A stretch of 64,000 nucleotides of DNA from a virus: the IMG/VR virus record IMGVR_UViG_3300029774_000001. The stretch is one strand, 5' to 3'. Below the pieces are notes generated by a model. The model searched no databases. It had not been told where the DNA came from and worked only from the letters and a program-made list of their open reading frames with translations. How positions within the stretch are numbered: the stretch's first letter is position 1; every line of letters begins with the position of its first letter. The translations under genes were made by a program, and so were the position numbers. Shown here piece by piece: positions 1,441 to 46,265 of this stretch.

Positions 1441-2001
1441 ATGAAATTATTATATACAGTAAGTTCCGGATATATGGCAGAACAGCAGAATGTTTCTTAT
1501 TCGTTGGGTGGCTTTGCATCTTCCACGACAATACCTAACGACATGTTCGGTAATTTGTTTGATGAATTGAGTGTAAACACGATAAGAAATGCGAGAAACG
1601 AATACCGGGCTATAGTGCTGCACAATGACAGCCAGGAGGTGGCAAAAGGGGTGAAGATATGGTTCGAGAATCCGGAAACAAATGTGTGTTCGTTTAAGGT
1701 AGGTGCCGTGGGAATGATGGAAGGTGCAGACGGAAGCCGATATATGGGCAGTGCACCTAATATATATAGCAGACCCTATACAGTCCAGTTTTATGAGGCT
1801 ACAGAGGAAAACCCGGTGTCTATCGGGGATATGCAGCCAGACCAGATGATAGGTATATGGGTGGAAAGGAGTATAGATAAAGAAAAGGCTTTGGAAGAGT
1901 ATAACAACGTGGCTGAGAGGGATTTAACAACCGAAACGAGATATAAGCCTATTCAGAAGGAAACACAAGAAATGTTAAATATGCAATTTTATTGGGAATA
2001 A
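1441..2001 (+). CDS. hypothetical protein, probable virion structural protein
   Basis: Track ORF 1390..2001. The start is moved to ATG 1441, which follows 'aggaggagaaa' and lies just after the stop of the upstream ORF. Confidence 0.55.
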   Translation: MKLLYTVSSGYMAEQQNVSYSLGGFASSTTIPNDMFGNLFDELSVNTIRNARNEYRAIVLHNDSQEVAKGVKIWFENPETNVCSFKVGAVGMMEGADGSRYMGSAPNIYSRPYTVQFYEATEENPVSIGDMQPDQMIGIWVERSIDKEKALEEYNNVAERDLTTETRYKPIQKETQEMLNMQFYWE

Positions 2002-2036
2002 GCTATTGCGTATGTCATAAACAAATATTATCTTTG
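2001..2036 (+). promoter_or_regulatory. promoter cassette copy 1 (partial: right palindrome arm plus -7 box)
   Basis: 'ttgcgtatgtc' at 2006..2016, then 12 nt, then TAtcTTTG at 2029..2036. The spacing is the same as in the seven full copies. A downstream hairpin aagggag/ctccctt lies around 2050-2072. Confidence 0.55.
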
Positions 2037-2110
2037 TGGTGTGATTGATAAGGGAGTGTTAAGCCTCCCTTTCTTAATCGGGTTAGACATAAACAAATAT
2101 TATCTCGAAT

Positions 2111-2407
2111 ATGAACAATATTGTAGAACTTAACGGATTGCAGGGTGTAAAGAGTGAAAAGGTTTACGCCTATTTTTCAACCGAACCGAAAGAGGTGCAG
2201 AATGCCCTGGAGCTTGGAATAGCATGTACCGGGGCTGATGATAACGGGGCGTACAACATTTATTTTGACGATGAAGAAAACATATGCTGTGAATACATGC
2301 AGCGTTGTGTCACGAAGGAGTTTAAAAAGGTGGAAACAATAGAAGAAGCTGTGTTGTGGATGGAGGGTTATTTTAATATAAAGGGTTATGACAGAAAAGA
2401 TTATTAA
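2111..2407 (+). CDS. hypothetical protein
   Basis: 98-aa ORF; the first gene downstream of cassette copy 1. Confidence 0.6.
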   Translation: MNNIVELNGLQGVKSEKVYAYFSTEPKEVQNALELGIACTGADDNGAYNIYFDDEENICCEYMQRCVTKEFKKVETIEEAVLWMEGYFNIKGYDRKDY

Positions 2408-2654
2408 AAAGGAAGATGTAGAATACAAGCTGACATGTAGTTTGTTTATGGAATGGAACCGTCCGGCAAAGTATAGATTTAAACTACAGCAAAGAGAGTG
2501 CGGAAAAAGGAAATGGTTGGATTTAAAAGGAGAGGAATGCTTGGTATATACAGAGAAAGATATTGTTTTGCAGTATGTGAGTAAAGAAGATGTGTTAGAG
2601 CTTGCTTTTGAGGAATACAAGAAATACTACCCTAATAATGAAATGCTGAAATGA
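2388..2654 (+). CDS. hypothetical protein
   Basis: 88-aa ORF overlapping its upstream neighbour by 20 nt. Confidence 0.55.
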   Translation: MTEKIIKKEDVEYKLTCSLFMEWNRPAKYRFKLQQRECGKRKWLDLKGEECLVYTEKDIVLQYVSKEDVLELAFEEYKKYYPNNEMLK

Positions 2655-2812
2655 AGACATTAATTTTTGATGTGATGCTGAATGAGCAATATATACACAC
2701 GTTCAAATATAAATACAATCCTCTGTTTCCTATTGAGGAGGAAGAGTTAAGGAAGTTTGTGGAAGAGAGATTGCCGACATTGAAAGGGAAGAAATTCAAG
2801 ATTTTGTTTTAG
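2651..2812 (+). CDS. hypothetical small protein (53 aa)
   Basis: Hand-translated (MKTLIFDVML...KFKILF); below the track cut-off. ATGA overlap with the upstream stop. Confidence 0.45.
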   Translation: MKTLIFDVMLNEQYIHTFKYKYNPLFPIEEEELRKFVEERLPTLKGKKFKILF

Positions 2813-2815
2813 GGT

Positions 2816-2980
2816 ATGAATCTGAATGCTATCATAAAGAAATGGTTCTGTCGCCATGAATGGGAGCTGATGTATGAGAGAAAGGTTACGGCATGGGATG
2901 AGTTAGGATGTAATAAATATATTGCCAGATATTACGTCTGCAAGAAATGTGGCAGATACAAGAAAACCAAAAGTTATTGA
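2816..2980 (+). CDS. hypothetical small Cys-pair protein (54 aa)
   Basis: Hand-translated (MNLNAIIKKWFCRHEW...VCKKCGRYKKTKSY). It carries C-x-H ... C-x-x-C pairs and fills the gap between neighbouring ORFs exactly. Confidence 0.45.
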   Translation: MNLNAIIKKWFCRHEWELMYERKVTAWDELGCNKYIARYYVCKKCGRYKKTKSY

Positions 2981-2981
2981 T

Positions 2982-3224
2982 ATGAAACAGACAGTAGAAA
3001 AGGCGTCAATAGAATATGCTGAATCGGTTATTCGTTCATTTGGAACATGTGGGGTACCGAATGGAATTTCTGACATCAAGGAAATGATTGCTAATGGTTT
3101 TAATAGTGGTGCTGAATGGCAGAAGGAGAAAGCTATTGAAGCTTTGTCTTCTGTACTGGAGGACTGGGTACATGGTGGTGATGCAGACTGTATAATTGCA
3201 GAATTTGAAGAAAAATTGAAATAA
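2982..3224 (+). CDS. hypothetical protein
   Basis: Track ORF 2922..3224 starts at TTG inside the previous small ORF. ATG 2982 follows that ORF's stop by 1 nt. Confidence 0.55.
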   Translation: MKQTVEKASIEYAESVIRSFGTCGVPNGISDIKEMIANGFNSGAEWQKEKAIEALSSVLEDWVHGGDADCIIAEFEEKLK

Positions 3225-3225
3225 A

Positions 3226-3480
3226 ATGGATGAAAGGAAAATTCTTTTGTTTAAGAAGGGGTGTTATGATGTTGGAACACGTTTTTCTTTTATTGTAAAT
3301 GGTAAGATTATCGAAACAGTCATAATTGATGTAATGATTGATTATCATAAAAGCATCAATTATGAAAAGCATTCTGTAAGGTATCATTTTTGCACTATGG
3401 ATAAACATACATTCGATGAATTTTCGGAAAGAGAATTAGAAGATATGATACATAGAGGGATTGTTTTATATATTGAGTAA
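3226..3480 (+). CDS. hypothetical protein
   Basis: 84-aa ORF starting 1 nt after the upstream stop. Confidence 0.55.
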   Translation: MDERKILLFKKGCYDVGTRFSFIVNGKIIETVIIDVMIDYHKSINYEKHSVRYHFCTMDKHTFDEFSERELEDMIHRGIVLYIE

Positions 3481-3491
3481 TTGAAAAAGCC

Positions 3492-3752
3492 ATGAAAGGA
3501 AATATATTTGACAAAATAAGAAAAGCATCTAATAAATACATAGAGTATATGGTTGCTTGTGACTGTGTAGCCAAAGAAGCACAAAAACATATAGATTGGG
3601 ACAATAATGTTTCGTGTGAATATTATCCCGGTGATGGAATATGTATAATGATAGACGAGCATGTTTGTTATGCTAATACATTCTTTGACTTGGTAGAAGA
3701 ATCAGAAAACGGTATGCTTGATAGGGGAACTTTTATGAGAAATTGTATTTGA
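3492..3752 (+). CDS. hypothetical protein
   Basis: 86-aa ORF in the co-directional array. Confidence 0.55.
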   Translation: MKGNIFDKIRKASNKYIEYMVACDCVAKEAQKHIDWDNNVSCEYYPGDGICIMIDEHVCYANTFFDLVEESENGMLDRGTFMRNCI

Positions 3753-3753
3753 C

Positions 3754-3927
3754 ATGGAAAGATATAGGATTGTGAAAGAAATAGGGTATAGCGGCTGTAT
3801 TCCGATAGTCGTGTATTGCGTACAAGTCAGAAAAGACAAACGTCTTTCGTCTGAATGGGTGAATGTAAAGGGGTTTGATACCTATAGGAAAGCAAGAGAG
3901 TTGTTGTTTGTTTTAAACGGTGATTGA
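3754..3927 (+). CDS. hypothetical small protein (57 aa)
   Basis: Hand-translated (MERYRIVKEIGYSGC...LLFVLNGD). It fills the gap between flanking ORFs. Confidence 0.45.
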   Translation: MERYRIVKEIGYSGCIPIVVYCVQVRKDKRLSSEWVNVKGFDTYRKARELLFVLNGD

Positions 3928-3928
3928 T

Positions 3929-4234
3929 ATGGAAATAGTTCCCGATTTGATAAAAAGTAATCTATCTAAAAACCAGGTAGAATATATTCAAAAGAAACAG
4001 CATGAATATAAATTGACGAACAAGAAGAGGAGGGTTCCGGGACATATTTTATTTTCATTCAATCTGAAAACGAAAGAGATAAAGAGAGCTTCTATTACCA
4101 AAGAAGTTTCAATTGGATTAAACGGGAAACCTATAATGAAAACTAAAATAGCTATTGAGCCGGATTGCTATTACGAACAAGCTTTGAATGAAAAGAATTT
4201 TAGAAAAAGATTAAAGAGGATTGGGTTAATATGA
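3929..4234 (+). CDS. hypothetical protein
   Basis: Track ORF 3920..4234 (GTG start). ATG 3929 lies directly after the upstream stop. Confidence 0.55.
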   Translation: MEIVPDLIKSNLSKNQVEYIQKKQHEYKLTNKKRRVPGHILFSFNLKTKEIKRASITKEVSIGLNGKPIMKTKIAIEPDCYYEQALNEKNFRKRLKRIGLI

Positions 4235-4422
4235 AAACAATTAAGATTTCAAATTTACAAGAAGGGGATTTGTTCATATATAAAGGCGTAATGTATGAAA
4301 TTGTACATAAGGACAAATGGGAAACCTATTGTAAATATGTCAATAATAAAAGTCGTTTGGGATGGTTTTCAAGCGAATATTTTTATTGTAAATTTAGTAA
4401 TTATACAAAAGTAGAGGTTTAA
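4231..4422 (+). CDS. hypothetical protein
   Basis: 63-aa ORF with an ATGA overlap. Confidence 0.5.
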   Translation: MKTIKISNLQEGDLFIYKGVMYEIVHKDKWETYCKYVNNKSRLGWFSSEYFYCKFSNYTKVEV

Positions 4423-4427
4423 GCATT

Positions 4428-4724
4428 ATGAGTAAATATAGATATAGAGAAGTGAAGAATTATATCCACAACGAACTAAAGTTGACTAAAGAGGATATAA
4501 AGGAAATTATGGTTCCAATTGTGAAAGAGGAGGTTAAACGTATCTTTCAAAACACATATGGAAACGACGTTGATATAGAGAGGTGGGTTCGTTGTATGGT
4601 TTCCAACGAGATACAAAGACATGGTGATTACTCTATGATAAGGAATTTGTGCAGGGAGATAATTAAGGAGGAAATTACCGATAGGTTGTCAATTGATATA
4701 AGCCTTAAAAAGAAAGAGGGGTAA
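4428..4724 (+). CDS. hypothetical protein
   Basis: 98-aa ORF. Confidence 0.55.
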   Translation: MSKYRYREVKNYIHNELKLTKEDIKEIMVPIVKEEVKRIFQNTYGNDVDIERWVRCMVSNEIQRHGDYSMIRNLCREIIKEEITDRLSIDISLKKKEG

Positions 4725-4727
4725 AAT

Positions 4728-4919
4728 ATGCAGAATGAAATTTCTTGGAATGAAAATACTCGTTATGAGATTTATAATCCATATAGTGATATTTCTCCTT
4801 TAGAACCGTGTGATGTACCCAAAATGAGAAAATATCGCCTAAAAGATGATAGGTGTACAAACAAACAAATTGCGAAACGCAGGAAGAGGAATAAGAACCG
4901 TAAAACACATAGGAAATGA
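4728..4919 (+). CDS. hypothetical basic protein
   Basis: 63-aa ORF with a very basic C-terminus (KRRKRNKNRKTHRK). Confidence 0.5.
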   Translation: MQNEISWNENTRYEIYNPYSDISPLEPCDVPKMRKYRLKDDRCTNKQIAKRRKRNKNRKTHRK

Positions 4920-5113
4920 GTAGGTTTGAGAAAGAAATACTTCCTTTCATGGAAGAGGAAATTATGCGAAAACTCCGTACATACAATGTGTACAGTACAA
5001 AGGAGTATGAGGACATACGGAAGGCGGTAAGGTATTCAATAAGGTTTTGCAAGAAAAATAAAATAGTTCGATGTGAAGATAAAAATTTAAACAAAGAAAG
5101 GGACAAGAAATGA
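4916..5113 (+). CDS. hypothetical protein
   Basis: 65-aa ORF with ATGA overlaps at both ends. Confidence 0.5.
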   Translation: MSRFEKEILPFMEEEIMRKLRTYNVYSTKEYEDIRKAVRYSIRFCKKNKIVRCEDKNLNKERDKK

Positions 5114-5637
5114 AAAAGTACAAGGTTTTATTTTGTGATATGGACGGCACGTTAATAGAAACTGCAAGTGGTGAGACGTTTCCAAAGGGGATATGGGACA
5201 TGAAATTTAAGTTTGATGTCCTGGATGCAATAAAGAATTTGAATCCCGAAGAAATTTTTATCGTGACAAACCAGGGAGGGATAGAAAAAGGGTTGGTTCC
5301 AGAATCATTTATTTATGTAAAATATGAGTACGTGAGTTACAGTATAATGGATTATTGCGACATTGATACGCGTTTTAAGTATTGCGGAAGCAATGACAGA
5401 AGCAACCCTATGAGAAAGCCAAATACCGGAATGCTTGAAGAACTTTTTGATAATTACAATACATGGAAAGATTTCAGTTTGGAGGTAGAAGATTGTTTAA
5501 TGATTGGTGATGCAAGCGGCCTCGAAGGGCAGTTTTCAGACAGTGACAAGAAAACAGCCGAGAATTTTGGCATAGACTATATGGATGTCAGCGAGTTCGT
5601 AAATGTTTACGGGAAAGGGTGTGATTATGGGATTTAA
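5110..5637 (+). CDS. HAD-superfamily phosphatase (HisB-N/GmhB/polynucleotide 3'-phosphatase-like)
   Basis: Motif I 'FCDMDGTLIE' (DxDGT), motif II 'IVTNQGGI', 'RKPNTGML', and motif IV 'MIGDASG'. Confidence 0.75.
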   Translation: MKKYKVLFCDMDGTLIETASGETFPKGIWDMKFKFDVLDAIKNLNPEEIFIVTNQGGIEKGLVPESFIYVKYEYVSYSIMDYCDIDTRFKYCGSNDRSNPMRKPNTGMLEELFDNYNTWKDFSLEVEDCLMIGDASGLEGQFSDSDKKTAENFGIDYMDVSEFVNVYGKGCDYGI

Positions 5638-5824
5638 TAGAGGAACAAAGTTAGGCGCAGAAAACAGAAAAGGGCATAGATGGATAAACAACCCCAACAA
5701 TGCGCATAGAAAGTGTACGAAGTGCGGCTGTATGGTCGATGTGATTTCCTCAAAAGGAGAAAGTATCTATACATACACAGATACTAAAGGTAACAAATCG
5801 GCTGAATGCCCTAATTGTATTTGA
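5627..5824 (+). CDS. hypothetical zinc-ribbon protein
   Basis: Track ORF 5603..5824 with the start moved to ATG 5627. Carries 'CTKCGC ... CPNC' Cys pairs. Confidence 0.5.
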   Translation: MGFNRGTKLGAENRKGHRWINNPNNAHRKCTKCGCMVDVISSKGESIYTYTDTKGNKSAECPNCI

Positions 5825-5826
5825 TT

Positions 5827-6036
5827 ATGGAAGTAAAGAACGGAATAATAATAGATGGAGTGCTGCATGAAGCTGCGAATTATCCAAATGACTATGAATG
5901 TACTATATGTTCTCTTCGTAAGGAATGTGATGAATTAGAGAATCGTAGTGATGAATGGATTTGCAGGCTTATTGATTGTAAGTATTTTATCAATCGTGGC
6001 AAAGTAACAGACATTAAGATAGATAAGGAGGAATAA
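5827..6036 (+). CDS. hypothetical Cys-rich protein
   Basis: Track ORF 5815..6036 (TTG start). ATG 5827 lies after the upstream stop. Contains 'CTICSLRKEC'. Confidence 0.5.
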   Translation: MEVKNGIIIDGVLHEAANYPNDYECTICSLRKECDELENRSDEWICRLIDCKYFINRGKVTDIKIDKEE

Positions 6037-6038
6037 CA

Positions 6039-6533
6039 ATGGAAAGCGATAAACTTATATTAGATGCTTGTTGTGGCAGTAGAATGTTTTGGTTTGACAA
6101 GCATAACCCTTTGGTTTTATTTGTAGACAAGCGTTCAGAAACACTTACAGCTAAGGACAAAGATAGAATCAGAACTATAGATGTAAAACCGGATGTAATA
6201 GCCGGTTTTACTAATTTGCCGTTTGAGGATAATTCTTTTTATATGGTGGTGTTTGACCCACCGCATCTAAAAACACTTGGTGAAACCTCATGGATGGCTA
6301 AGAAATACGGTAAACTGCCAAAAGATTGGAAATCACTTATACACGACGGATTTGCCGAGTGTATGCGCGTCTTGAAACCTAATGGAACGCTCATTTTCAA
6401 ATGGAACGAAAGTGAGATAAAAGCTTCAGAAGTTTTGTCCGTTATCCCTTTTAAGCCTCTATTTGGACATACCACTGGAAGGCAGAGCAAAACAATATGG
6501 ATGTGTTTTATGAAGAGAGAAGACGATGAATAA
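6039..6533 (+). CDS. small SAM-dependent methyltransferase, probable DNA N6-A/N4-C methyltransferase
   Basis: Motif I-like 'ILDACCGSRMF' and motif IV 'VVFDPPHL' ((D/N/S)PP(Y/F/H)), within a 164-aa Rossmann-sized protein. Confidence 0.6.
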   Translation: MESDKLILDACCGSRMFWFDKHNPLVLFVDKRSETLTAKDKDRIRTIDVKPDVIAGFTNLPFEDNSFYMVVFDPPHLKTLGETSWMAKKYGKLPKDWKSLIHDGFAECMRVLKPNGTLIFKWNESEIKASEVLSVIPFKPLFGHTTGRQSKTIWMCFMKREDDE

Positions 6534-6681
6534 TACAGAAGAAAAGCATTGCAGTATATGCGTGCATTATGAGATATGTGCCAATTTTCAGATGTATTGT
6601 CACGCATTGAAAAGACGCATAACGGCAAGAAAGCAGGCGAAGAACTGTAAGTATTTTGAATATAGATGGAGGAATAAATAA
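6526..6681 (+). CDS. hypothetical Cys-rich small protein (51 aa)
   Basis: Hand-translated (MNNTEEKHCSICVHYEICANFQMYCHALKRR...). Overlaps the upstream stop. Confidence 0.4.
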   Translation: MNNTEEKHCSICVHYEICANFQMYCHALKRRITARKQAKNCKYFEYRWRNK

Positions 6682-6803
6682 TGCACCAGTGTGACTATTG
6701 TTGTTGGTATAACGAAAGATACGGGAATTGCGATTGTCCGTATGCAATGAAAAAGTCGGCTTGTGATAAAGCTAAAAAGGAGAAAGAAAGGAGTGAGAAA
6801 TGA
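6681..6803 (+). CDS. hypothetical Cys-rich small protein (40 aa)
   Basis: Hand-translated (MHQCDYCCWYNERYGNCDCPYAMKKSACDK...). Abuts both neighbours. Confidence 0.35.
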   Translation: MHQCDYCCWYNERYGNCDCPYAMKKSACDKAKKEKERSEK

Positions 6804-6946
6804 AATTAAAACATCTATTAGATTGGTATAACGAAAACACACCATCAGAAGATGAAGAATACGAAAAGGGATGTCTATCTATCGCCTTGATAGTAGCAAT
6901 CATTTTCATTGCATTAACGGTTGTAATTTTATCTTACGAATTATGA
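6800..6946 (+). CDS. hypothetical small membrane protein (48 aa)
   Basis: Hand-translated, with one hydrophobic helix 'LSIALIVAIIFIALTVVILS'. ATGA overlaps at both ends. Confidence 0.4.
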   Translation: MKLKHLLDWYNENTPSEDEEYEKGCLSIALIVAIIFIALTVVILSYEL

Positions 6947-7371
6947 AATCAAAACAAGTATTATCAATAGAACAAATGAAGCACTTGCAGGAGCTTGGAT
7001 TAGATACAAGTGATGCAAGTATGTGCTGGTGTCGCGCTATCTCACATAAATCTGTAACGTGGGAGCTTGAAATCTATGAGTATGTAATAAACCAAAAACT
7101 GGATTCTAATTTTTGGGAAACAACCCCTACTTACACTTTGCAGGACATTCTGGATAAGTTACCAGAATCAGTACAGGTATATGATTTGTACATATTTAAG
7201 AAAGTAGGGTTGTGGTGGCTCAAATATGTAGACGTAACGAATAATGGAACCGTTCGTTTAGAAAAAATGCCGAAGTTGATAGATGCAGCCTATTATATGC
7301 TGTGTTGGTGCATTCAAAAGGGGTTTGTTAAAACTAATAAGGAGGTTAAAGATGGAAGAAAAGAAAATTGA
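6943..7371 (+). CDS. hypothetical protein
   Basis: Track ORF 6871..7371. The start is moved to ATG 6943 (MKSKQVL), which gives an ATGA overlap with the upstream small ORF. Confidence 0.55.
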   Translation: MKSKQVLSIEQMKHLQELGLDTSDASMCWCRAISHKSVTWELEIYEYVINQKLDSNFWETTPTYTLQDILDKLPESVQVYDLYIFKKVGLWWLKYVDVTNNGTVRLEKMPKLIDAAYYMLCWCIQKGFVKTNKEVKDGRKEN

Positions 7372-7561
7372 TTGGGAACAGAGGCGTTATGAACTGGCAA
7401 AGGCTGCAATGCAAGCTTTGATTTCAAACAGTTTCTTTATGAAAAATTTGGGTATGTATTTGGATGAACATCCAGATAAAAAGATGGATGCAATAGAAGT
7501 AGTAGCTATTGAATCAATTAATTATACTGATGTATTGATAAAGAAACTGAAAGGAGAATAA
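7352..7561 (+). CDS. hypothetical protein
   Basis: Track ORF 7283..7561. ATG 7352 (MEEKKIDW) is preceded by 'aaggaggttaaag'. Confidence 0.5.
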   Translation: MEEKKIDWEQRRYELAKAAMQALISNSFFMKNLGMYLDEHPDKKMDAIEVVAIESINYTDVLIKKLKGE

Positions 7562-7563
7562 TC

Positions 7564-8025
7564 ATGGAAGCACATGTAATGAAGCTTGAAAACAACTGTG
7601 TAATTGTTGACGAGGAATATTTTAATGAGATAAAGAAGCAGTCAGAATTTAACCAAGAAAGGATAAACGAGATTGCCGAAGAAAGGTTTTTGGAATATGT
7701 CAAAGAAAGCGGTATTGAACTTTCCTATAAAGTAAACGGAATACCTTATATGTTTCATTATGATTTGTTGAACGAAATAAATTATGAAGAGAGGGGTTAT
7801 CCAGAATCCGTATCAGAAAAGGTAAAGTATGCTATCGCAGACGATATAACCGAGGCTTTGAATGATAAGCTTAAGGGATTGAAAGACGAGGCTTTGAATT
7901 ATGCCTTAAGTGAGTTTGACAAACGGAAGCACGGTTTAGAGGCTACTGTAAAAATATGGAAATATTTCGCATTAATCTTTATCATTACGACTATTATTCT
8001 AACAATTAGATTATTTATATTGTGA
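7564..8025 (+). CDS. hypothetical protein with C-terminal transmembrane helix
   Basis: 153-aa ORF with a C-terminal 'YFALIFIITTIILTIRLFIL'. Confidence 0.55.
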   Translation: MEAHVMKLENNCVIVDEEYFNEIKKQSEFNQERINEIAEERFLEYVKESGIELSYKVNGIPYMFHYDLLNEINYEERGYPESVSEKVKYAIADDITEALNDKLKGLKDEALNYALSEFDKRKHGLEATVKIWKYFALIFIITTIILTIRLFIL

Positions 8026-8026
8026 A

Positions 8027-8143
8027 ATGATGTTAAAACAGAGACAATTTAGACATAAGCACTTGCGTATCTCATAACATAATCTTATCTTTGCATTGTG
8101 AGATTAAGAGATGAAAAGTCAAACAAATAAAAAAGATAAGGTT
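8027..8143 (+). promoter_or_regulatory. promoter/operator/leader cassette copy 2
   Basis: 'atgatgttaaaac' box; palindrome 'gacataagcacttgcgtatctc' at 8052..8073; 12-nt spacer; -7 box TAtcTTTG at 8086..8093; leader 'gtcaaacaaataaaa' at 8118..8132; ATG at 8144. Confidence 0.65.
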
Positions 8144-8334: not shown

Positions 8335-8362
8335 ATAGGGCTATGTTTGTAGCCCTATTTTT
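8335..8362 (+). terminator. rho-independent terminator overlapping a -7 box
   Basis: Stem atagggcta (8335..8343) / tagccctat (8350..8358), loop tgtttg, then a tttt run. The same bases contain TAtgTTTG at 8342..8349, with TTTG at 8318..8321 lying 20 nt upstream. Confidence 0.6.
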
Positions 8363-8376: not shown

Positions 8377-9831
8377 ATGGCTCAAAAGTTGTCTGCCGGA
8401 TTCATGGCAGAATTATTCAAGCTTGTGTATATGGATTTGAATATCACCAGGATGGTGGTAAATAATCTGACTTATCAGTTAATACCCAAAGAGTGGCCCG
8501 GGTTCAAATTCTTGCTAAAAGAGGCAACAGAAGTATTAAAGGAAAAAGATAAGGTTCCTTCTTTGGGCGTGGTGTCCCAAAAATACGCTGATAGTGATTT
8601 TGTGATTGAAGCGATAGATGCTGTGCAGTCAGCCGCCAAAGTAGACAAGGAAATCATTATAGACCAGTTGGAAGCGTACATTAAAGATGTGGAATTCCAG
8701 CTACTTTCTAAAAAAGTACATGATTTGTACGAAGAAGGAAAGAAAGAAGATGCTATACGGGTAAATGCGGAAGAGAGCCAAAGAATTTTATCCCTATCAT
8801 TAAGGCATGAGGCAGGCGGTTTTCAGAAAGTGTTCTCTGATTTTGACAAACGAATGAAGAGGAGACGGGAAGAAGAAGAGGGGGAGGTTCCATCACGCGT
8901 AATGTTCGGACTTGATAAGATAGACCAGATTTCAGAAGGCGGTGCCACAATGGAAGATACCGTGTTATGGATAATGCGTTCGGGTGTCGGTAAGTCTACT
9001 GTATTGAGATATCACGGTATGCAGGCAGCTTTTGACGGACACCCGGTCTTGCATATACAGTTGGAGGGCGGTGCGCGTGCGTGTCTGGAAAGATACGACC
9101 AGTTTTGGACCGGGCAAAAATACGGGAACATCAGAAAAGGTGTCATAGATGACAAGTTAGCCGAGAAAATAGAAAAGGCTTTTGAAAACATGAAATCCTA
9201 TTCCAAGGACATAGATGTTTATTCTTTTGAAAAATTCGGGCAGGCTACTATGGTGGATATCCGTAACGTGATAGTTTCCTATTACAAGAAAAACGGTTAT
9301 TATCCGCATGTATTGATATTGGATTCGTTAGACCTTGTGGCAACAGGAACAAATAGAGTTGTAGACAATAACCCTACATTCAAAAAAGAAAAATTACAGA
9401 CATGTGCACAACTTTTGAAAAATTTATGTGTAGAGTTTAAAATGGTGGGATTTACGGCAGCACAAGCCGGAAATGTGCCGTTGGAAATATGGGACAATTC
9501 GGACAAAGTGATAGACAGAAGCTATACGGAAGGGGACAGGACACTTGTAAAGCCGTTTTCCTTTGTGTTTACCGGGAACCGGACAAGAGAGGAAAAGAAA
9601 CAGAACATAATGCGTATCTATATGGATAAGGTACGCGATTATGATACGGTAAAAGATACCTTCCCTATTGTGACGGATTACGGCAGGGGACGTTTTTGTG
9701 ACAAGGCGCTGACAGCCGAATATTACGGAGGTGACAAGGGTTTCACGTCCTCTACTTCTGAAAAGAAGACAAGAAAGAAAAAGGACGAAGGCGGTGAAAA
9801 GCAAAATGATGTTAAAACAGAGGTGATTTAG
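8377..9831 (+). CDS. dnaB: DnaB/T4 gp41-like replicative DNA helicase
   Basis: Walker A 'MRSGVGKSTVL' and Walker B-like 'VLILDSLD', with a ~190-aa N-terminal domain before the RecA-like core. The gene lies just upstream of the primase. Confidence 0.8.
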   Translation: MAQKLSAGFMAELFKLVYMDLNITRMVVNNLTYQLIPKEWPGFKFLLKEATEVLKEKDKVPSLGVVSQKYADSDFVIEAIDAVQSAAKVDKEIIIDQLEAYIKDVEFQLLSKKVHDLYEEGKKEDAIRVNAEESQRILSLSLRHEAGGFQKVFSDFDKRMKRRREEEEGEVPSRVMFGLDKIDQISEGGATMEDTVLWIMRSGVGKSTVLRYHGMQAAFDGHPVLHIQLEGGARACLERYDQFWTGQKYGNIRKGVIDDKLAEKIEKAFENMKSYSKDIDVYSFEKFGQATMVDIRNVIVSYYKKNGYYPHVLILDSLDLVATGTNRVVDNNPTFKKEKLQTCAQLLKNLCVEFKMVGFTAAQAGNVPLEIWDNSDKVIDRSYTEGDRTLVKPFSFVFTGNRTREEKKQNIMRIYMDKVRDYDTVKDTFPIVTDYGRGRFCDKALTAEYYGGDKGFTSSTSEKKTRKKKDEGGEKQNDVKTEVI

Positions 9832-9893
9832 ACATAAGCACTTGCGTATGTCATAACATAATCTTATCTTTGTAGTGTCTTCTTAAGGGAGGC
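9806..9893 (+). promoter_or_regulatory. promoter/operator cassette copy 3 (overlaps the helicase 3' end)
   Basis: 'aatgatgttaaaacagaggtgatttag' encodes the last helicase codons. Palindrome at 9831..9852; -7 box TAtcTTTG at 9865..9872; then 'gtcttcttaagggaggc', shared with copy 8. Confidence 0.6.
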
Positions 9894-9965
9894 AAGAAAA
9901 GAAGGTGAAAGACTGTAAAGAACATCTTTTTTGGGATATATTGTTTATGAATTAGTTTAGAGGAT

Positions 9966-10298
9966 ATGAAAAGATATAAAGTTGGAGAAGTATTTGAATA
10001 CGAAGGCATGATATTGAAAGCGATAGAAGATGATTTGAAACAAGAAGAAAGTGGATGTAAATATTGTGCTTTAAACAAATTTGTGTGCAGCCATATAGAT
10101 TGTGGTACAAGAATGAATCCAAGTATTCGTTTTATTGAAGTTTCAAAAGAAAAACTTTTTGCGGATGCACTGCCAATAATCCAAGGTGCGCCTATGCCAC
10201 CGCTTGAAGATAATACGAATTTTCTTGATGATTTGGATTTGAAGCCGAAAAAGAAAAGCTTTTGGAAACGGTTAATGTTTTGGAGGAAAGATGTTTAG
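9966..10298 (+). CDS. hypothetical protein (Cys cluster)
   Basis: 110-aa ORF containing 'CKYCALNKFVCSHIDCG'. Confidence 0.55.
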   Translation: MKRYKVGEVFEYEGMILKAIEDDLKQEESGCKYCALNKFVCSHIDCGTRMNPSIRFIEVSKEKLFADALPIIQGAPMPPLEDNTNFLDDLDLKPKKKSFWKRLMFWRKDV

Positions 10299-11842: not shown

Positions 11843-11853
11843 TGGAGATAACA

Positions 11854-11886
11854 TTTGTTTATCTCAAAATTAAATTGTTATATTTG
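11854..11886 (+). promoter_or_regulatory. Bacteroidota-type promoter (-33 TTTG / -7 TAtaTTTG)
   Basis: TTTG at 11854..11857 and TAtaTTTG at 11879..11886, 21-nt spacing, 23 nt upstream of ATG 11910. Confidence 0.55.
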
Positions 11887-11909
11887 CAGTGTAATTAAAG
11901 AACAAAAGT

Positions 11910-12437: not shown

Positions 12438-13015
12438 GAAATTTTGACAAAATATTAATGACCGGGGCGCAGGGTACAGGGAAAACAACCCTATTGAAAG
12501 CCTTGCAGAACGAACCGGAATTTGACAACTGGAAGTTTTACACGAATGTTGTCAGAACGATGGTTGAAGAAGAGGGAATAGCCATCAATAAGGAGGGTAC
12601 TTCTGAATCACAAAAGAAAATATTCGACAAATACACTCAAATAATGGAAGATGCTATGAAACAACCTTCCATTAGTGACAGATGTATTATTGATGTGAAC
12701 GCGTACACTTCATGGCTTTTTGACAACTGTAATCCGAAAGACAAGGATTATAACAACCTGGCAGAAGAGGACTTCAAAGAAAAGCGCCAGATTGTAAAAC
12801 GGAAATACGAATTTCCTTTGCTTGTCTATCTTCCTATTACATTCAGATTGCAGGGTGACGGTGCGCGTTCGGAAGACGAGGAATACCAGAAGGAAATCGA
12901 CCGTAAAATAAAGCAGATTGTCGATAATTACGGAATACCATATATTTCTGTTTCCGGTTCAACGGAAGAACGTGTGCAGCAGATTAAGGATGCCGTATTT
13001 GGAAAGGAGAAGTAA
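12434..13015 (+). CDS. P-loop NTPase, NadR/AAA_28-like (putative nucleoside or nucleotide kinase)
   Basis: Walker A 'MTGAQGTGKTTLLKAL' near the N-terminus of a 193-aa protein. ATGA overlap with mazG. Confidence 0.55.
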   Translation: MRNFDKILMTGAQGTGKTTLLKALQNEPEFDNWKFYTNVVRTMVEEEGIAINKEGTSESQKKIFDKYTQIMEDAMKQPSISDRCIIDVNAYTSWLFDNCNPKDKDYNNLAEEDFKEKRQIVKRKYEFPLLVYLPITFRLQGDGARSEDEEYQKEIDRKIKQIVDNYGIPYISVSGSTEERVQQIKDAVFGKEK

Positions 13016-13019
13016 GACA

Positions 13020-13379
13020 ATGGAAGTTTCTTTGTTGACTTTGAGAAATGTGGGACGGAAGCTTGGAATGCAGAACGTTTCCGGATTTAAGAAAGAAGAC
13101 CTTTTGCAGCAGGTTGTCGAAAGACTGGAAGCAAAAGGAAAGACGATTGAAGAATATGCAAAGGAAGTTTCGATAAATACCCAAAAGGGGTATGTCAAGA
13201 AAAAGTTTAACCTTTCACCTAAAGGAAAAAACCCGTACAAGAAAGGAAGTATATCGTATAAGGTGTGGGAAGAACTCGCAAAGAATGACGGTCGTTCATT
13301 CAGCCGGATTGCAAAAGAACTGGGAACGCATTACAACGTTGTTTCCGTTTGTTGCAGGAACCATTTTAATAAATCATAA
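13020..13379 (+). CDS. hypothetical DNA-binding protein (SAP/Rho-N-like N-terminus, HTH-like C-terminus)
   Basis: Track ORF 12918..13379 with the start moved to ATG 13020. Contains 'FKKEDLLQQVVERLE' and 'SFSRIAKELGTHYNVVSV'. Confidence 0.45.
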   Translation: MEVSLLTLRNVGRKLGMQNVSGFKKEDLLQQVVERLEAKGKTIEEYAKEVSINTQKGYVKKKFNLSPKGKNPYKKGSISYKVWEELAKNDGRSFSRIAKELGTHYNVVSVCCRNHFNKS

Positions 13380-13458: not shown

Positions 13459-15054
13459 ATGGAAGAGTTGTATAAAGACTTAATCAAATATTTGGAAGAT
13501 AATTTTTTGTCTTTCAATGTTTTAGATAATTATATTGTAGAAATTGACGGGCAGACATTTGAATTGTTCGAGCCTTTTAAGTGGGATAAGGACGAAAACG
13601 GGATTTTCTTTGACGATTCGTTCCAGTGGGTAGGAGATAGGACAGAATGTGATAACTATGTTTTCCGGTTTGGCGATGTATGGTATTATCTGAAAAAGGG
13701 AGACGAAAACAAGGTAAAACTTAACCGATTGCAGTATATCGGAAAAGCGAATTTGTTTGACGAAAGTTTGAGGTTTGACACCTATATAGGAGTGCATGGT
13801 AATTTTGAGTTGATGAACGGGATGCACTTTTATTCCGACTGGGTGGAAAAGGCGAAATTCATGGGGATAAGGGCGCTTGGCATATGCGAAAAGAATACGC
13901 TTGCATCAGCGTTCAAGTTTCAAAATGCGTGTCTAAAAAGCGACATAAGACCTATATTCGGTATGGAAGTTACCGTATATAATGAACAGAAGGACGTTAG
14001 ATATACGGTAAAACTGATAGTCAAGAATAAGGAGGGGTGGAATAACCTATTGAAAATAAACAAAATTCTGAATGTTGACGAAAAAGGTTTTATCACGGAA
14101 AAGGAATTGCAGGAAATGAAAGACGGATGTTTTCTACTACTTGACCCGAAAACATGTACGTTTGAAAATCTCCCTATATTGTCAAGAAAATGGAATGACA
14201 CTTATTACCAGCTTGATACCGTGGAATACAAGAAGAATGACCGGGATAAAAAATATCTTGACAATCTGAAAAAGTTCGTGGGTGTGTATAAGCCCGTGGC
14301 GGTATGTGACGCTTGGTACCTGGAAAGACGGTGCGCCCCTATAAGAGAAAAGCTTAACAGATTGGCAAAGGTAGTGAATTATGAGAGTGACAACCAGTAC
14401 ATGAAGAACTATCAAGAGTATTACGAAGAACTGTCAAAACTGATATTGGACGAAGACAAGTTTTTCGGACTGTTTGAAGAAGCTTTGGTAAATCTTAATT
14501 ACATATCGGTAAATTGTAATTATTTGCTGGAGACACAAGTACGGCATGCACCCCAATATGTAATGACAGAAGAGGAGAAAAAGAAATATTCGTCCAATAC
14601 AGAAATGTTTGAATCGCTTGTATTTGACGGACTGGCAGAACATCCGGAAATACTGGATAGATACAGTGAAGAAGAACTGACGGAAAGACTGAACACGGAA
14701 ATATCCATCATAGAAGAAGGCGATGTAGTGGACTACTTTCTGATGCTGAGGGACATTATCAGATGGGGAAGGGATAATAACATTTTGGTCGGACTGGGGA
14801 GAGGCTCCTCCGCTGGCTCTTTGGTGTCCTATCTTCTTGGTATTGTTAATGTAAACCCGTTGGAATACGAACTCCTATTCAGTCGATTTTTGACAAAGGG
14901 TCGTTTAATTCGGCATGAAGAGGAAGAAGTGGTAATGATAAACGGAGAAAAAGAAATATCCGGAAATGCTTTTATAAAGATTATCAGAAATGACGAGGAA
15001 ATGATAATCAGAGCGAAAGAGCTAAAAGAAGGTGACGAACTGATAAACGAATAG
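13459..15054 (+). CDS. dnaE: DNA polymerase III alpha (DnaE) N-terminal fragment: PHP domain to start of palm
   Basis: PHP-region motif 'ALGICEKNTLASAFKFQNACLKSDIRPIFGMEVTV'. '...GRGSSAGSLVSYLLGIVNVNPLEYELLFSRFLTKGR' is colinear with bacterial DnaE up to the residue before the SMPDIDxDF motif, followed by a 49-aa non-DnaE tail. Confidence 0.8.
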   Translation: MEELYKDLIKYLEDNFLSFNVLDNYIVEIDGQTFELFEPFKWDKDENGIFFDDSFQWVGDRTECDNYVFRFGDVWYYLKKGDENKVKLNRLQYIGKANLFDESLRFDTYIGVHGNFELMNGMHFYSDWVEKAKFMGIRALGICEKNTLASAFKFQNACLKSDIRPIFGMEVTVYNEQKDVRYTVKLIVKNKEGWNNLLKINKILNVDEKGFITEKELQEMKDGCFLLLDPKTCTFENLPILSRKWNDTYYQLDTVEYKKNDRDKKYLDNLKKFVGVYKPVAVCDAWYLERRCAPIREKLNRLAKVVNYESDNQYMKNYQEYYEELSKLILDEDKFFGLFEEALVNLNYISVNCNYLLETQVRHAPQYVMTEEEKKKYSSNTEMFESLVFDGLAEHPEILDRYSEEELTERLNTEISIIEEGDVVDYFLMLRDIIRWGRDNNILVGLGRGSSAGSLVSYLLGIVNVNPLEYELLFSRFLTKGRLIRHEEEEVVMINGEKEISGNAFIKIIRNDEEMIIRAKELKEGDELINE

Positions 15055-24731: not shown

Positions 24732-25044
24732 AAACAAGGAATGCACGGAGTTCGGGAAGGAAATTATAGAGACGCGCCCGATGTTTAAGTACACCGACAA
24801 GGGAACCGTGCCTATTAATGTGCCTTATTGTAAGGTATGCGGAAAACAGATGGGGTACCGGGAAGAATTGCCGGAAAGTGAAAGTGATATAAACGTGGCG
24901 TTCGCTTCTTTTGGTTCCCAGTCCAACGAAAATAAAGCCTCTATTCTCAAAGATAGATACAAGAAAGGTCTTGAAAAAGACGGTATTAGCGAGGTTATAA
25001 AGGCTAAAAGAGATAAAATGACTAAGGATTTTTTCGGTGGGTGA
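24712..25044 (+). CDS. hypothetical zinc-ribbon protein
   Basis: 'WKCENKEC ... CKVCGKQM' Cys pairs; 110 aa. Confidence 0.55.
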   Translation: MIYWKCENKECTEFGKEIIETRPMFKYTDKGTVPINVPYCKVCGKQMGYREELPESESDINVAFASFGSQSNENKASILKDRYKKGLEKDGISEVIKAKRDKMTKDFFGG

Positions 25045-25158
25045 TATGTTAAAACAGTGTTAAAATGGCATAAGCAGTTGCGTATCTCATAACATAATCT
25101 TATCTTTGCATTGTGAGATTAAGAGATGATAAGTCAAACAAATAAAAAAGATAAGGTT
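25045..25158 (+). promoter_or_regulatory. promoter/operator/leader cassette copy 4
   Basis: Begins at the nucleotide after the upstream stop. Contains 'tatgttaaaacagtgttaaaa'; palindrome at 25067..25088; -7 box TAtcTTTG at 25101..25108; leader 'gtcaaacaaataaaa' at 25133..25147. Confidence 0.65.
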
Positions 25159-32897: not shown

Positions 32898-33322
32898 TAT
32901 TCGAGTGCACGTTTACCTACATGGCACCCGACCCGAATTCGACAAGCGGTAATTATAAAAAGTTTGTCGATGTCATAGCGGTACAGGCAGAAAACTATAT
33001 GGATGCCGAAACAATGGCAACCGAATACGGGATGTTCAATATAGACGCGGACTTTGCCATATCTCCTATTAAGGAGGTGATTATAGATTCGGTGCAGCGT
33101 AACGAAAAGCACGGGGGACGATGGTACAAATGCACGGGCGTATACAGTGAGGCAACCGTTTCTGGAAAGCTGAAACAATACAAGCTGGTTATATTGCAAC
33201 AGCATGAGGACTTTATAAAAGCCTCTACTAAAGCGCTGGAATACATGCAAGACCTTGTAGGCGAATGCAGACTGACGAAGGTAGAGGAAACTCCTATAAT
33301 CGAATATGTGGAAAAGGACTGA
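32894..33322 (+). CDS. hypothetical protein
   Basis: Track ORF 32816..33322. ATG 32894 (MIFECTF) gives an ATGA overlap with the upstream stop. Confidence 0.55.
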   Translation: MIFECTFTYMAPDPNSTSGNYKKFVDVIAVQAENYMDAETMATEYGMFNIDADFAISPIKEVIIDSVQRNEKHGGRWYKCTGVYSEATVSGKLKQYKLVILQQHEDFIKASTKALEYMQDLVGECRLTKVEETPIIEYVEKD

Positions 33323-33433
33323 TATGTTAATTATATGTTAAAACGACATAAGCAGTTGCGTATGTCATAACATAATCTTATCTTTGTGGTGTGATAAGGA
33401 AAACGATAAGTCAAACAACAAAAAGATAAGATT
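33322..33433 (+). promoter_or_regulatory. promoter/operator/leader cassette copy 5
   Basis: Starts at the upstream stop codon. Contains 'tgatatgttaattatatgttaaaac'; palindrome at 33345..33366; -7 box TAtcTTTG at 33379..33386; leader 'gtcaaacaacaaaaa' at 33410..33424. Confidence 0.65.
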
Positions 33434-36471: not shown

Positions 36472-36530
36472 AATCAAACGAAAAACTTTATGTTCATTTT
36501 TTGAGTATTAGTAGTTAATATCTAATTGAC

Positions 36531-36564
36531 AGCCAGCAGTTTGTGATAAATAGCTGGCTTTTAT
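36531..36564 (+). terminator. rho-independent terminator candidate
   Basis: Stem agccagc (36531..36537) / gctggct (36553..36559) followed by tttta. Confidence 0.45.
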
Positions 36565-36576
36565 TATATCCTTTTA

Positions 36577-36685
36577 TATGTTAATTATATGTTAAAAGCA
36601 CATAAGCACTTGCTTATGTCTAAATAAGGTCTTATATTTGCAATGTGATAAGAAAACGAAGTCAAACAAATAAAAACAAAAGATT
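36577..36685 (+). promoter_or_regulatory. promoter/operator/leader cassette copy 6
   Basis: 'tatatgttaattatatgttaaaa'; the best palindrome, 'acataagca ct tgcttatgt', within 36599..36620; -7 box TAtaTTTG at 36633..36640; leader 'gtcaaacaaataaaa' at 36661..36675. Confidence 0.65.
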
Positions 36686-37484: not shown

Positions 37485-38408
37485 ATGGATAGAGAAGAAT
37501 TCCAGAAAAAGTACGATAACAGTATTCTGGTGTGCTGTACAGAAAACAGTATCAAGAAAGTATTCAATATTTGCGATTTAATGGACTTAACAGTCTCTAA
37601 ATCAAAACAGATTACTGCTGTATTGATAGGAGAACAAACAGCAAAAAGTCCATTGTTCCACGTGGAACAATTCCTCAGTGATTTCTACAGGGGGATAGAA
37701 GAAGGAGAAAGGAAAGAGACAAAGATGTTTGAACAGAGGATGAACAATGCCATATACAAGCTAAAGCAGAAGTACGGAGACACGTATATAATCAAGGGAA
37801 CCGATATGGCCACATTGATGTGCACAACGGAACTCGGCATGAATGCAGTCTATAAAGAGGGGGAAGATGTGATACTCATAGAAGAAAAGGGCAGCATACC
37901 ATGTGTAAGACATTCTGTAAGACAGTTTATTACTGACGTGATGTCCGGCATGATTGACGTACTGGACCCATTCATAAACAAGGAGACAACGATTGAAATA
38001 AAGGAAGAAGAAGACACGAAAAACATGATTAGTGAAACAATCTTCCATCTCACCCATACCCTAACAAAGCTCCTGCTTAAGGTATACGACACGGAAAGAA
38101 TGGTCTATTCAATTGGATTCGGAAACAAGGAAAGGGTAATGATAGACAAGGACGATTTCTATGTGTTCCGGAAAGCGGTGCGCCTCCTATATATATGCAA
38201 CAAGTGGGTAACGAAGGACAACGAGAAGCAATCCAAGGAACCGGATTTCAAGAAAGGAAACAAAATAATGTACACCATCAAGGACAGCAACGGCAACACA
38301 TACCCGGTAAGCAGACTGTCGGAAAGAGTGTATGAATCAAAGGAGCACAAGACCCTATTCATAATGGACGAAGAAGGGATAGTAACCGGGATATACAAGG
38401 AGAAATAA
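37485..38408 (+). CDS. hypothetical protein (307 aa)
   Basis: Track ORF 37335..38408. The start is moved to ATG 37485, preceded by the A-rich leader 'aaaataaaaagatt'. Confidence 0.55.
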   Translation: MDREEFQKKYDNSILVCCTENSIKKVFNICDLMDLTVSKSKQITAVLIGEQTAKSPLFHVEQFLSDFYRGIEEGERKETKMFEQRMNNAIYKLKQKYGDTYIIKGTDMATLMCTTELGMNAVYKEGEDVILIEEKGSIPCVRHSVRQFITDVMSGMIDVLDPFINKETTIEIKEEEDTKNMISETIFHLTHTLTKLLLKVYDTERMVYSIGFGNKERVMIDKDDFYVFRKAVRLLYICNKWVTKDNEKQSKEPDFKKGNKIMYTIKDSNGNTYPVSRLSERVYESKEHKTLFIMDEEGIVTGIYKEK

Positions 38409-38728
38409 AAAGAGAAAACACCCTCCACGACACCCTACAGACCATATTTTATTATTAACCCGTTATACATTTGTTACAATGGTAATAGGGTGTCAAAAGA
38501 GGGTATAAAACAATGATAAGAAGAACCGGAAAGGGACAGACCCTTTGGCATAAAGGAAAAGGGTTGTTATGTCCGACCCCTACAACATGATTATAAACCG
38601 TCAACCTATAATTGTTAATTTGCAAAAGAAAGGGAAAGGACATATGGAAAGCCGATATGGCGTAGGGAACAGTCCTGGAACGGTTCTTGTATCATTGTAA
38701 AACGTGGAACAATCATAAAAATAACATC

Positions 38729-40586: not shown

Positions 40587-40845
40587 ATATATTTTACTAT
40601 ATTCAGAAAGTATTCTCCCTTATAGGGCAATCGATACTACAGTATGCTGTAGCCGCGATTTTGCAAATTTCGTATTTTTATCATTTGTAAATTTAAATTG
40701 AAATAATTATGTATCCTACTAAAATAAATATAGCAAACAGCAGTAGAAGAATTCGTTTGTCCCTATCCTTTGATGGATGAAGACGAAATCAACGGTTCCG
40801 GTGACTGGAAAAGTGAAGAAGGGGTAATTTGATTGTTTTCGGGAT

Positions 40846-40886: not shown

Positions 40887-41007
40887 TTTTCCTTATTTTA
40901 TTGTACACCGAAAAACAACACAATTTTCAGAGTTAGTGTTAACTGTCTGATAATCACATACCATTTTCTTCTATTTCTAAAAAATATAATGTCACTGAAA
41001 GAAAGGT

Positions 41008-41118
41008 TATGTTAATCTTATGTTAAAACGACATAAGCACTTGCGTATGTCTGATTAAGTACCTATATTTGCAATGTGATAAGGAAACAAGGTCAAACAA
41101 ATTAAAAGAAATAAGGTT
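41008..41118 (+). promoter_or_regulatory. promoter/operator/leader cassette copy 7
   Basis: 'ttatgttaatcttatgttaaaac'; palindrome at 41030..41051; -7 box TAtaTTTG at 41064..41071; leader 'gtcaaacaaattaaa' at 41092..41106. Confidence 0.65.
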
Positions 41119-43448: not shown

Positions 43449-43542
43449 AACCTTCTTTCTCTAAATTTTATATATATTTGTTTGACTGACACCCGGTTAC
43501 GCTCTTCGTGAAAGAATGTTTCTGGGTGTTTTCTTTGTGGTT

Positions 43543-43656
43543 ATATGTTAAAATAGTGTTAAAATGACATACGCAGTTGCTTATGTCCAAATAAGTCCTT
43601 ATATTTGCAATGTCTTCTTAAGGGAGGCGGTTAATTAAGTCAAACAAATAAAGATT
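43543..43656 (+). promoter_or_regulatory. promoter/operator/leader cassette copy 8
   Basis: 'ttatatgttaaaatagtgttaaaa'; palindrome 'gacatacgcagttgcttatgtc' at 43566..43587; -7 box TAtaTTTG at 43600..43607; 'gtcttcttaagggaggc'; leader 'gtcaaacaaataaag' at 43639..43653. Confidence 0.65.
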
Positions 43657-45158: not shown

Positions 45159-45177
45159 CTAAATCTTGACAACCGAG

Positions 45178-46262: not shown

Positions 46263-46265
46263 AAA

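Follow-up and report, generated by a model that had tools for sequence, protein, structure and literature searches.

What is the element of about 100 nt that recurs in front of gene blocks in the genome of an uncultured gut phage, and what is the role of the palindrome that it carries? We address this in a stretch of 64,000 nucleotides from IMG/VR record IMGVR_UViG_3300029774_000001, called the window below. Its plus strand is A-rich and almost every gene points rightwards. The replication genes occupy the 8–33 kb region (DnaB, primase, a DnaE-type polymerase in two ORFs, SbcC, an NAD-dependent ligase, two helicases, RecA and RNase H), and the portal, protease and major head genes are found from about 46 kb onward. 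The nearest relatives of the DnaE protein are encoded by uncultured human-gut phages, and the next is that of Cellulophaga phiST; this kinship, with the presence of DnaG, SbcCD, RecA and a Dps-like domain, fits a phage that is like the proposed 'Gratiaviridae'. The predicted hosts of that group are Bacteroides and Parabacteroides, and the paper that proposed it does not mention promoters (PMC8008677). There is no integrase or other lysogeny signal within the window, and the phage was not found as a prophage in a scan of the genomes of 185,579 species.

Several genes of this phage have unusual structures. The two adjacent polymerase ORFs (13459-15054 and 15059-17134) lie in different frames and match a single PHROG family, the first in its N-terminal part (profile positions 47-439) and the second in its C-terminal part (441-1057). 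The portal protein (52073-55075) is unusually long at 1000 aa, and its middle region matches an NrdD-like PHROG (E = 1.5e-7). In the structural module a 619-aa protein (58454-60313) has a Nudix domain fused to a Dps-like domain.

A sequence-only reading of the window had listed eight copies of the element at the heads of small-ORF blocks. All eight are present where it placed them, seven of them full and one partial, all on the plus strand, and every copy does head a gene block (Table 1); they are intergenic or at the 3' ends of genes, always on the coding strand. An unguided repeat search of the window returned the identical eight-member family, and the palindrome pattern ACATAMGCASTTGCKTATSTC has 13 matches at seven sites, six of which match on the reverse strand as well; in shuffled sequence 0.01 would be expected. 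The eight copies align well, and an nhmmer profile built from 103 unique copies from relatives, with the window itself excluded, recovers all of them (seven full copies with E <= 1e-16, the partial one at 1992-2043). The same scan adds a single weak site at 11848-11892, and on both strands of the window it found nothing further except the reverse-strand reflections of the palindromes, so the original list of cassettes is complete. Rfam and tRNA scans gave no match. The cassettes are not fragments of a duplicated gene, as the coding sequences that flank them are unrelated and only about 100 nt are shared. Some of them fit very tightly against the gene upstream: stop codons end at 8025, 25044 and 33322, directly before the cassette or one base inside it as had been noticed, and the box region of cassette 3 does encode the final eight codons of the helicase (NDVKTEVI and stop).

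Table 1. Promoter cassettes and the diverged ninth member in the window (positions in nt from the first base of the window).
Element	Position	Strand	GTTAA boxes	Palindrome	-7 box	ATG	Remarks
Cassette 1 (partial variant)	1992..2110	+	one, displaced (ATGTTAAA)	left arm degenerate (GAATAAGCT), right arm intact	TATCTTTG 2029-2036		nhmmer E = 7e-8; heads small-ORF block 2111-8025
Cassette 2	8026..8143	+	distal only	8053-8073	TATCTTTG 8086-8093	8144	predicted +1 ~8098; leader unstructured
Cassette 3	9806..9965	+	distal only	9832-9852	TATCTTTG 9865-9872		heads 9966-10298 and primase gene; longer leader, opens GTCTTCTTAAGGGAGGC
Ninth member (diverged)	11848..11909	+	none	imperfect, GAGATAACA-TT-TGTTTATCTC, centred on TTTG, same register	TATATTTGCAGTGT after 12-nt spacer		nhmmer E = 0.009; also in repeat search; kept in relatives; heads operon of MazG, kinases and split DnaE polymerase
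Cassette 4	25042..25158	+	two	25068-25088	TATCTTTG 25101-25108	25159	leader 97% identical to cassette 2 leader; heads ligase/helicase/RNase H block
Cassette 5	33319..33433	+	two, 11 nt apart	33346-33366	TATCTTTG 33379-33386	33434	
Cassette 6	36576..36685	+		perfect-palindrome variant, 36600-36620	TATATTTG 36633-36640	36686	terminator-like hairpin upstream, ~36530-36560
Cassette 7	41005..41118	+		41031-41051	TATATTTG 41064-41071	41119	terminator-like hairpin 40841-40885, ~110 nt upstream
Cassette 8	43541..43656	+		43567-43587	TATATTTG 43600-43607	43657	leader opens GTCTTCTTAAGGGAGGC, then GTCAAACAAATAAA; terminator hairpin 43488-43530 directly upstream

The variant form of cassette 1 is kept in eight unique copies from relatives. 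Its leader contains a hairpin at about 2050-2075 (AAGGGAG...CTCCCTT; fold -15.6 kcal/mol), and the hairpin is followed at 2077-2105 by a second partial copy of the promoter spacer region. Behind cassette 2 there is a 54-aa ORF, then a terminator at 8335-8358 (-15 kcal/mol, z = -3.7) and then the DnaB helicase gene at 8377; with so strong a terminator directly before it, expression of the helicase may depend on read-through.

The relatives in which these copies were found form a shallow clade, with proteins 84–100% identical; the cassette-bearing IMG/VR contigs measure 53–108 kb. Two more distant DnaE-encoding relatives, MT835601 and MT835494, have neither the cassette nor an analogous repeat. 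Bacteroides phage C3_41T2LP was considered as a cultured relative and rejected, as it has a single gene in common with the window and no cassette. The gene in question (7564-8025) is 86–89% identical in DNA sequence to its counterpart in this otherwise unrelated Bacteroides uniformis phage and in MT835742, and the homology (window 7127-8020; about 13965-14298 in C3_41T2LP, our L117) ends just 5' of cassette 2. C3_41T2LP has a promoter palindrome of its own, TTTTGGAACTTTCCAAAA, 5' of the -7 boxes at L117 positions 22011 and 28855.

The cassettes have the parts of a promoter for the host polymerase. The Bacteroidota sigma-ABfr consensus is -33 TTTG / -7 TAnnTTTG, and Baez et al. place the G of TAnnTTTG at -5 (PMC6847099). 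The -7 box had been correctly assigned: the consensus is present in all copies, with no G at the two middle positions (TAHHTTTG), and the eight copies and the diverged ninth member (the 11879 variant below) have TATCTTTG or TATATTTG. An nTTG lies 20 nt 5' of TAnnTTTG in every copy, and the corresponding distance in other promoters of the window is 19–21 nt; in Bacteroidota promoters a TTTG-like element is expected about 19–21 bp upstream of the -7 box. The 12 nt reported between palindrome and -7 box are exact in every copy, and the same gap was found in 141 unique copies from relatives with 10–14 nt allowed, the retrieval pattern having fixed it at 12 for the seeded copies. On the published numbering (PMC6847099) TAnnTTTG is at -12 to -5 and the palindrome at -45 to -25, with its centre TTG at -35 to -33, and the G at -5 puts the predicted +1 on the TGT that, as had been noted, follows the -7 box in all copies. 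The GTTAA boxes are at about -65 and -54, 11 nt apart; cassettes 1–3 have a single box each. Thus the main host sigma factor, sigma-ABfr, would contact the TTG and TAnnTTTG elements and read each cassette as a strong promoter, transcription would begin at the conserved TGT, and the GTTAA boxes, one helical turn apart, are probably UP-like elements.

The transcribed part of the cassette is 53% A and, according to folding calculations, unstructured in the common leader types. The motif GTCAAACAA, which had been said to occur in most copies, is present in 6 of the 8 in the window and in 126 of 139 unique copies from the clade. It lies 15–18 nt 5' of the ATG in 119 of these 126, but 16–33 nt from +1; it is therefore fixed relative to the start codon and not to the transcription start, and so is part of the translation-start region. 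The phylum of Bacteroides is without Shine-Dalgarno sites (PMC6847099), and the A-rich, unstructured leader with GTCAAACAA would serve ribosome loading in their stead. The repeated unit therefore combines a promoter with a 5' leader, and our confidence that the promoter is of the host type is high. One such unit would have been copied before every non-structural operon of this 'Gratiaviridae'-like Bacteroides phage.

The sequence-only reading did not recognise the extended consensus among described Bacteroides phage promoters, and this opinion must be revised. A search of IMG/VR used a pattern of the outer frame alone (GTTAAAA, a fixed gap, TTATMTTTG, nnn and TGT) and excluded the canonical palindrome. 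It returned 106 stretches that agree with the cassettes in boxes, spacer type, -7 box, TGT and A-rich leader and differ from them in the centre, mostly on contigs of 45–47 kb and often several per contig, with some on contigs of about 216–221 kb. One of these contigs is Bacteroides phage B124-14 (100% identity), whose genome contains three such promoters. Phage Bf12P1 (47,370 bp) would be expected to have this promoter type too, as its closest relative, Barc2635 (89% identical), matches the DNA of B124-14 at 93%. The engineered promoter P_BfP1E6 was reportedly derived from the B124-14 promoter family by Whitaker et al. in 2017. Its sequence, printed in PMC13634575, is 100% identical to B124-14 positions 4282-4183 and is one of the three. 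P_BfP1E6 is widely used, is strong and constitutive in uninfected B. thetaiotaomicron and other Bacteroides, and has been described as having UP elements and a -7 consensus; we infer that the GTTAA boxes are those published UP elements. In a published sgRNA design the transcript is placed directly after TTTGCAG of P_BfP1E6 (PMC13634575), a start within 1 nt of the +1 predicted here.

The cassettes agree with the B124-14 family in their boxes and the spacing of these from the -7 box, in spacer type, in CTTATATTTGCAnTGT and in having an A-rich leader. In both there are two GTTAA boxes 11 nt apart at an equal distance from the -7 box, a TTG near -33, an A-rich 12-nt spacer that ends in CT (compare AAATTAAGTCCT with CAAATAAGTCCT), the sequence TTATATTTGCAnTGT, and a leader that is rich in A, contains AAACAAA and reads ..TTATG at the start codon; several copies per genome head gene blocks. 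The cassette TTG is 1 nt farther from the -7 box, however, and the central 21 bp are unrelated: here they hold a 9+2+9 palindrome that is the best-conserved segment. Cassettes 4–8 share 14–16 of 22 bases with P_BfP1E6 in the box region and 7–8 of 8 in the -7 box; in the centre the figure falls to 5 of 21, which is the random level, so the cassettes are a variant of the P_BfP1E6 type of promoter and not a copy of it. The phages themselves are unrelated, a DnaE-encoding 'Gratiaviridae'-like phage of about 100 kb on one side and the 47-kb siphovirus B124-14 on the other. By this comparison the new part of the unit is the palindrome, and the remainder is an already-known promoter type; since its frame is shared with the constitutive P_BfP1E6, the host polymerase alone probably suffices to transcribe from the cassettes. 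Repressible derivatives of P_BfP1E6 have been built by inserting operators and leaving the UP elements and -7 box intact (bioRxiv 10.1101/2025.03.18.644028). They have the same frame as the cassettes, with an operator that spares those elements, but theirs are designed TetR, LacI or PhlF operators, whereas the operator-like palindrome here is natural.

The palindrome had been given as 22 bp. It is real, but its size is that of a 9+2+9 inverted repeat centred on the -33 TTG, with one arm position usually mismatched and a tenth, outer G/C pair in only about half of the copies. Among the seven full copies in the window, mean pairwise identity is 0.90 in the palindrome centre, 0.85 in the -7 box and start region, 0.60 in the spacer and 0.46 in the leader; in the B124-14-type promoters conservation of the centre (0.73–0.74) does not exceed that of the spacer. 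Changes at the two variable arm positions are uncompensated, with A.G or C.T mismatches in 107 of 141 unique copies, and the RNA of the palindrome folds inconsistently among copies, at -9.9 to -2.5 kcal/mol, with no U tract after it; these features argue for a protein site in duplex DNA and not for a hairpin. In the 11879 variant both arms have changed symmetrically, with symmetry and register kept. At the loci of the clade the canonical palindrome is present at 131 of 183 unique -7-box sites, and only about five family members have one or two changes in it, in a sample that is biased by retrieval: most of the copies from relatives were retrieved with a pattern that fixes the palindrome, so its invariance across the clade is partly circular, and the unbiased support comes from the window's own copies and the frame-only scan. 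Against the genomes of 185,579 representative bacterial and archaeal species the palindrome gave four unrelated matches, none with a -7 box and none in Bacteroides, and the idea that the exact consensus marks a host regulon was rejected on these grounds. The conservation, the uncompensated arms, the inconsistent folding, the symmetry of the 11879 variant and the absence from bacterial genomes together point, with moderate confidence, to a putative operator for a dimeric DNA-binding protein encoded by the phage.

With less confidence, we think that the bound regulator would act as a repressor. Repression is the more economical assumption, as the site covers the -33 element, the frame is active without phage proteins, and every visible non-structural operon has the site. 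With a dimer on the site (-45 to -25), RNA polymerase would be blocked, and all operons that bear the palindrome would be shut down or throttled together. Our preferred reading, to which we assign a probability of roughly 0.6, is thus a strong promoter read by the host polymerase and joined to a translation module, with the palindrome as a putative operator through which all of these operons could be shut down or throttled. The structural genes have promoters without the palindrome: those that open the structural module, at 46046 and 56040, have the -7 box and lack the cassette palindrome. The cassette may be a dedicated temporal promoter class, as had been suggested; this draws partial support from its confinement to the non-structural operons at 2–44 kb and the plain promoters of the structural module, and the shared frame is constitutive with host polymerase alone.

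Other parts of the window have possible control features of their own. The plain promoter before 56074 has a perfect palindrome, TGTTCAATTCTGAACA, at 56015-56030 just 5' of TATATTTG, and this palindrome occurs only once in the window. The 1.2-kb region 45050-46270 has no plus-strand ORF and contains a G-rich tract at about 45840-45990, as well as the window's sole convincing minus-strand ORF (45178-45633; 151 aa, hydrophobic, without a Pfam match); AAATTTYCTCGAAAAA is present there in inverted orientation at 45674 and 46005, beside the plain promoter 46046 at the start of the structural module. Divergent control by promoters of another class is one possible role of this region; alternatively, it may be an end or origin of the genome. 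The ORF-free gap at 38405-38730 (326 nt) folds at -88.6 kcal/mol as against -63.6 for shuffled sequence (z = -5.1); it has no Rfam match and may be a structured non-coding RNA.

A search for the regulator in the window yielded weak candidates. Pfam found no confident HTH or sigma domain in 75 ORFs, and permissive Pfam and PHROGs thresholds applied to ten small basic proteins gave only sub-threshold HTH matches. The candidates are the 129-aa product of 12990-13379 (three HTH families on residues 97-129, E = 0.03–0.18; AlphaFold model poor, pLDDT 60), that of 44717-45052 (AP2-like) and that of 46266-47564 (four HTH families on residues 231-266). The 54-aa first ORF behind cassette 2 is predicted by AlphaFold as a confident three-helix bundle, for which Foldseek found no structural match in PDB or BFVD. 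Presence or absence of the candidates across the relatives does not discriminate among them because the clade is shallow and syntenic. The regulator gene may lie outside the window. Dispersed repressor operators are familiar from temperate phages with known repressors, as in the P1 C1 operators, the conserved inverted repeats of phiC31 and the stoperators of mycobacteriophage L5. The cassettes resemble these systems in that one short site is repeated at many promoters, by which one regulator could act on many operons. They differ in that the site here has a fixed position within a copied promoter unit, and in that no repressor for the palindrome was found within the window, nor any integrase or lysogeny signal.

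The same site could instead serve activation, with a phage dimer that recruits or re-programmes the host polymerase; the cassettes would then form a middle class of promoters, inactive before synthesis of the activator. Overlap with the -35 region is a feature that the palindrome shares with class II activator sites and MotA boxes, the -33 element is only nTTG and not TTTG, and the cassette is limited to the non-structural operons. On the other hand, P_BfP1E6 has the same frame, an nTTG just as weak as that of the cassettes and an unrelated centre, and it needs no phage protein for strong constitutive activity; moreover, all eight non-structural operons in the window carry the site, which leaves no operator-free operon visible to supply the activator first (an early operon of this kind could lie outside the 64 kb); we consider activation unlikely. 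Nor do we favour, and we think it distinctly improbable, that there is no dedicated regulator at all and the centre is only this lineage's version of the -33 and proximal UP region, kept uniform by gene conversion and with a symmetry that has no function. The sub-modules of the cassette clearly recombine among copies, the B124-14-type centre is likewise specific to its lineage and works without phage factors, and Pfam, PHROGs and Foldseek did not find a regulator. But chance alone would hardly produce a 9+9 inverted repeat, the 11879 member has remained symmetrical despite changed bases in both arms, and conversion would also homogenise the spacer and leader, which are far more variable than the centre. 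A role for the palindrome as a hairpin in nucleic acid, whether a cruciform or a signal that ends or processes the transcript from upstream, draws on copies 3 and 6, which fold at -8.7 and -9.9 kcal/mol (z about -3). Copy 2, however, reaches just -2.5 kcal/mol, no better than shuffles, and separate, stronger terminators lie upstream of three copies; with the uncompensated arms, the inconsistent folding and the missing U tract, the hairpin was rejected and has almost no probability left.

The sharp boundaries of the cassettes had also suggested a likeness to the PeSL units of T4-type phages, in which a promoter is combined with a terminator stem-loop (PMC2839356, PMC4122927). In both cases short conserved regulatory units that use a host sigma factor lie in regions of small accessory ORFs, terminators precede some units, and traces of exchange between copies are seen. 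The types of upstream, spacer and leader module are found here in most combinations, so the copies have exchanged parts, and 27 of 110 unique first ORFs behind the cassettes of relatives have no counterpart in the window. In one relative the first ORF behind a cassette (f105, 404 aa, from the set L001-L115) is, by eye, TnpB / IS605 OrfB-like. To this extent the proposed shuffling stands, as sub-modules reassort and first genes vary, but homology breakpoints are not commoner at the cassettes: the rate per 1000 covered bases is 2.15 at cassettes as against 2.9 at ordinary gene boundaries, and it drops to 1.0 in other gaps and to 0.13 inside genes. Terminator hairpins with a U tract, called by direct folding (the counts of a simple scanner were about those in shuffles, and it missed long loops), precede only 3 of the 8 cassettes, namely 6, 7 and 8, and show no sequence conservation; the remaining five cassettes abut or overlap the upstream gene. 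Unlike PeSL units, then, the conserved unit has its hairpins outside it, and the one stem-loop-like element that it contains lies within the promoter over -33 and looks like a protein site. Since there is no excess of breakpoints and the hairpins at three cassettes are not conserved, the resemblance to PeSL is best taken as a loose analogy, with little to suggest membership. One could go further and regard the cassettes as mobile units of the PeSL kind, dispersed repeats of about 100 bp at which recombination shuffles accessory blocks among phages. The reassorted modules, the varying first ORFs with the TnpB-like gene among them, the hairpins before cassettes 6–8 and an outer frame common to unrelated phage families are all compatible with this. 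The breakpoint rates speak against it, cassettes 1, 4, 6 and 7 show 0–2 breakpoints each in 9–20 spanning alignments, and the conserved unit contains no terminator; such a role is quite improbable, and it would in any case supplement the promoter function and not supplant it.

A broader interpretation, which is speculative and rather unlikely, is that unrelated Bacteroides phage families share a portable promoter scaffold of high strength, made up of phased GTTAA boxes, an extended -7 box, a TGT at the start and an A-rich leader for translation, in which the swappable 21-bp centre is a lineage 'address', here a palindrome read by a repressor. The reader of the address would be a phage repressor, possibly of a new fold, through which all non-structural operons are switched at once. 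Phased GTTAA boxes, in some cases as runs of three, are also present before TTATMTTTG-nnn-TGT in IMG/VR contigs of 215–221 kb (L147, L149, L184 and L204) and in short contigs from other samples (L150, L163, L166, L194, L199 and L205). Since they occur on contigs of jumbo-phage size as well as on short ones, the arrangement appears to be widespread among presumed Bacteroidota phages. If the scaffold interpretation is true, the scaffold has been exchanged horizontally among phages, and the palindrome and its binding protein would form a natural, orthogonal pair of operator and repressor for the strongest Bacteroides promoter known.

With the preferred reading of a host-read promoter under a putative operator, these results are the first to map regulation in a group of Bacteroides gut phages that is common but has not been cultured: the same promoter unit stands before each non-structural operon, and all of these operons could be controlled through one conserved site. 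The architecture of the strong promoter most used for expression in Bacteroides is found beyond B124-14, in unrelated phages, with a centre specific to the lineage. The promoter profile can aid the annotation of transcription units and the prediction of hosts in metagenomic phage contigs, and if a binding protein is found, the palindrome and its binder would be a natural, ready-made switch for promoters of the P_BfP1E6 type in the engineering of gut bacteria.
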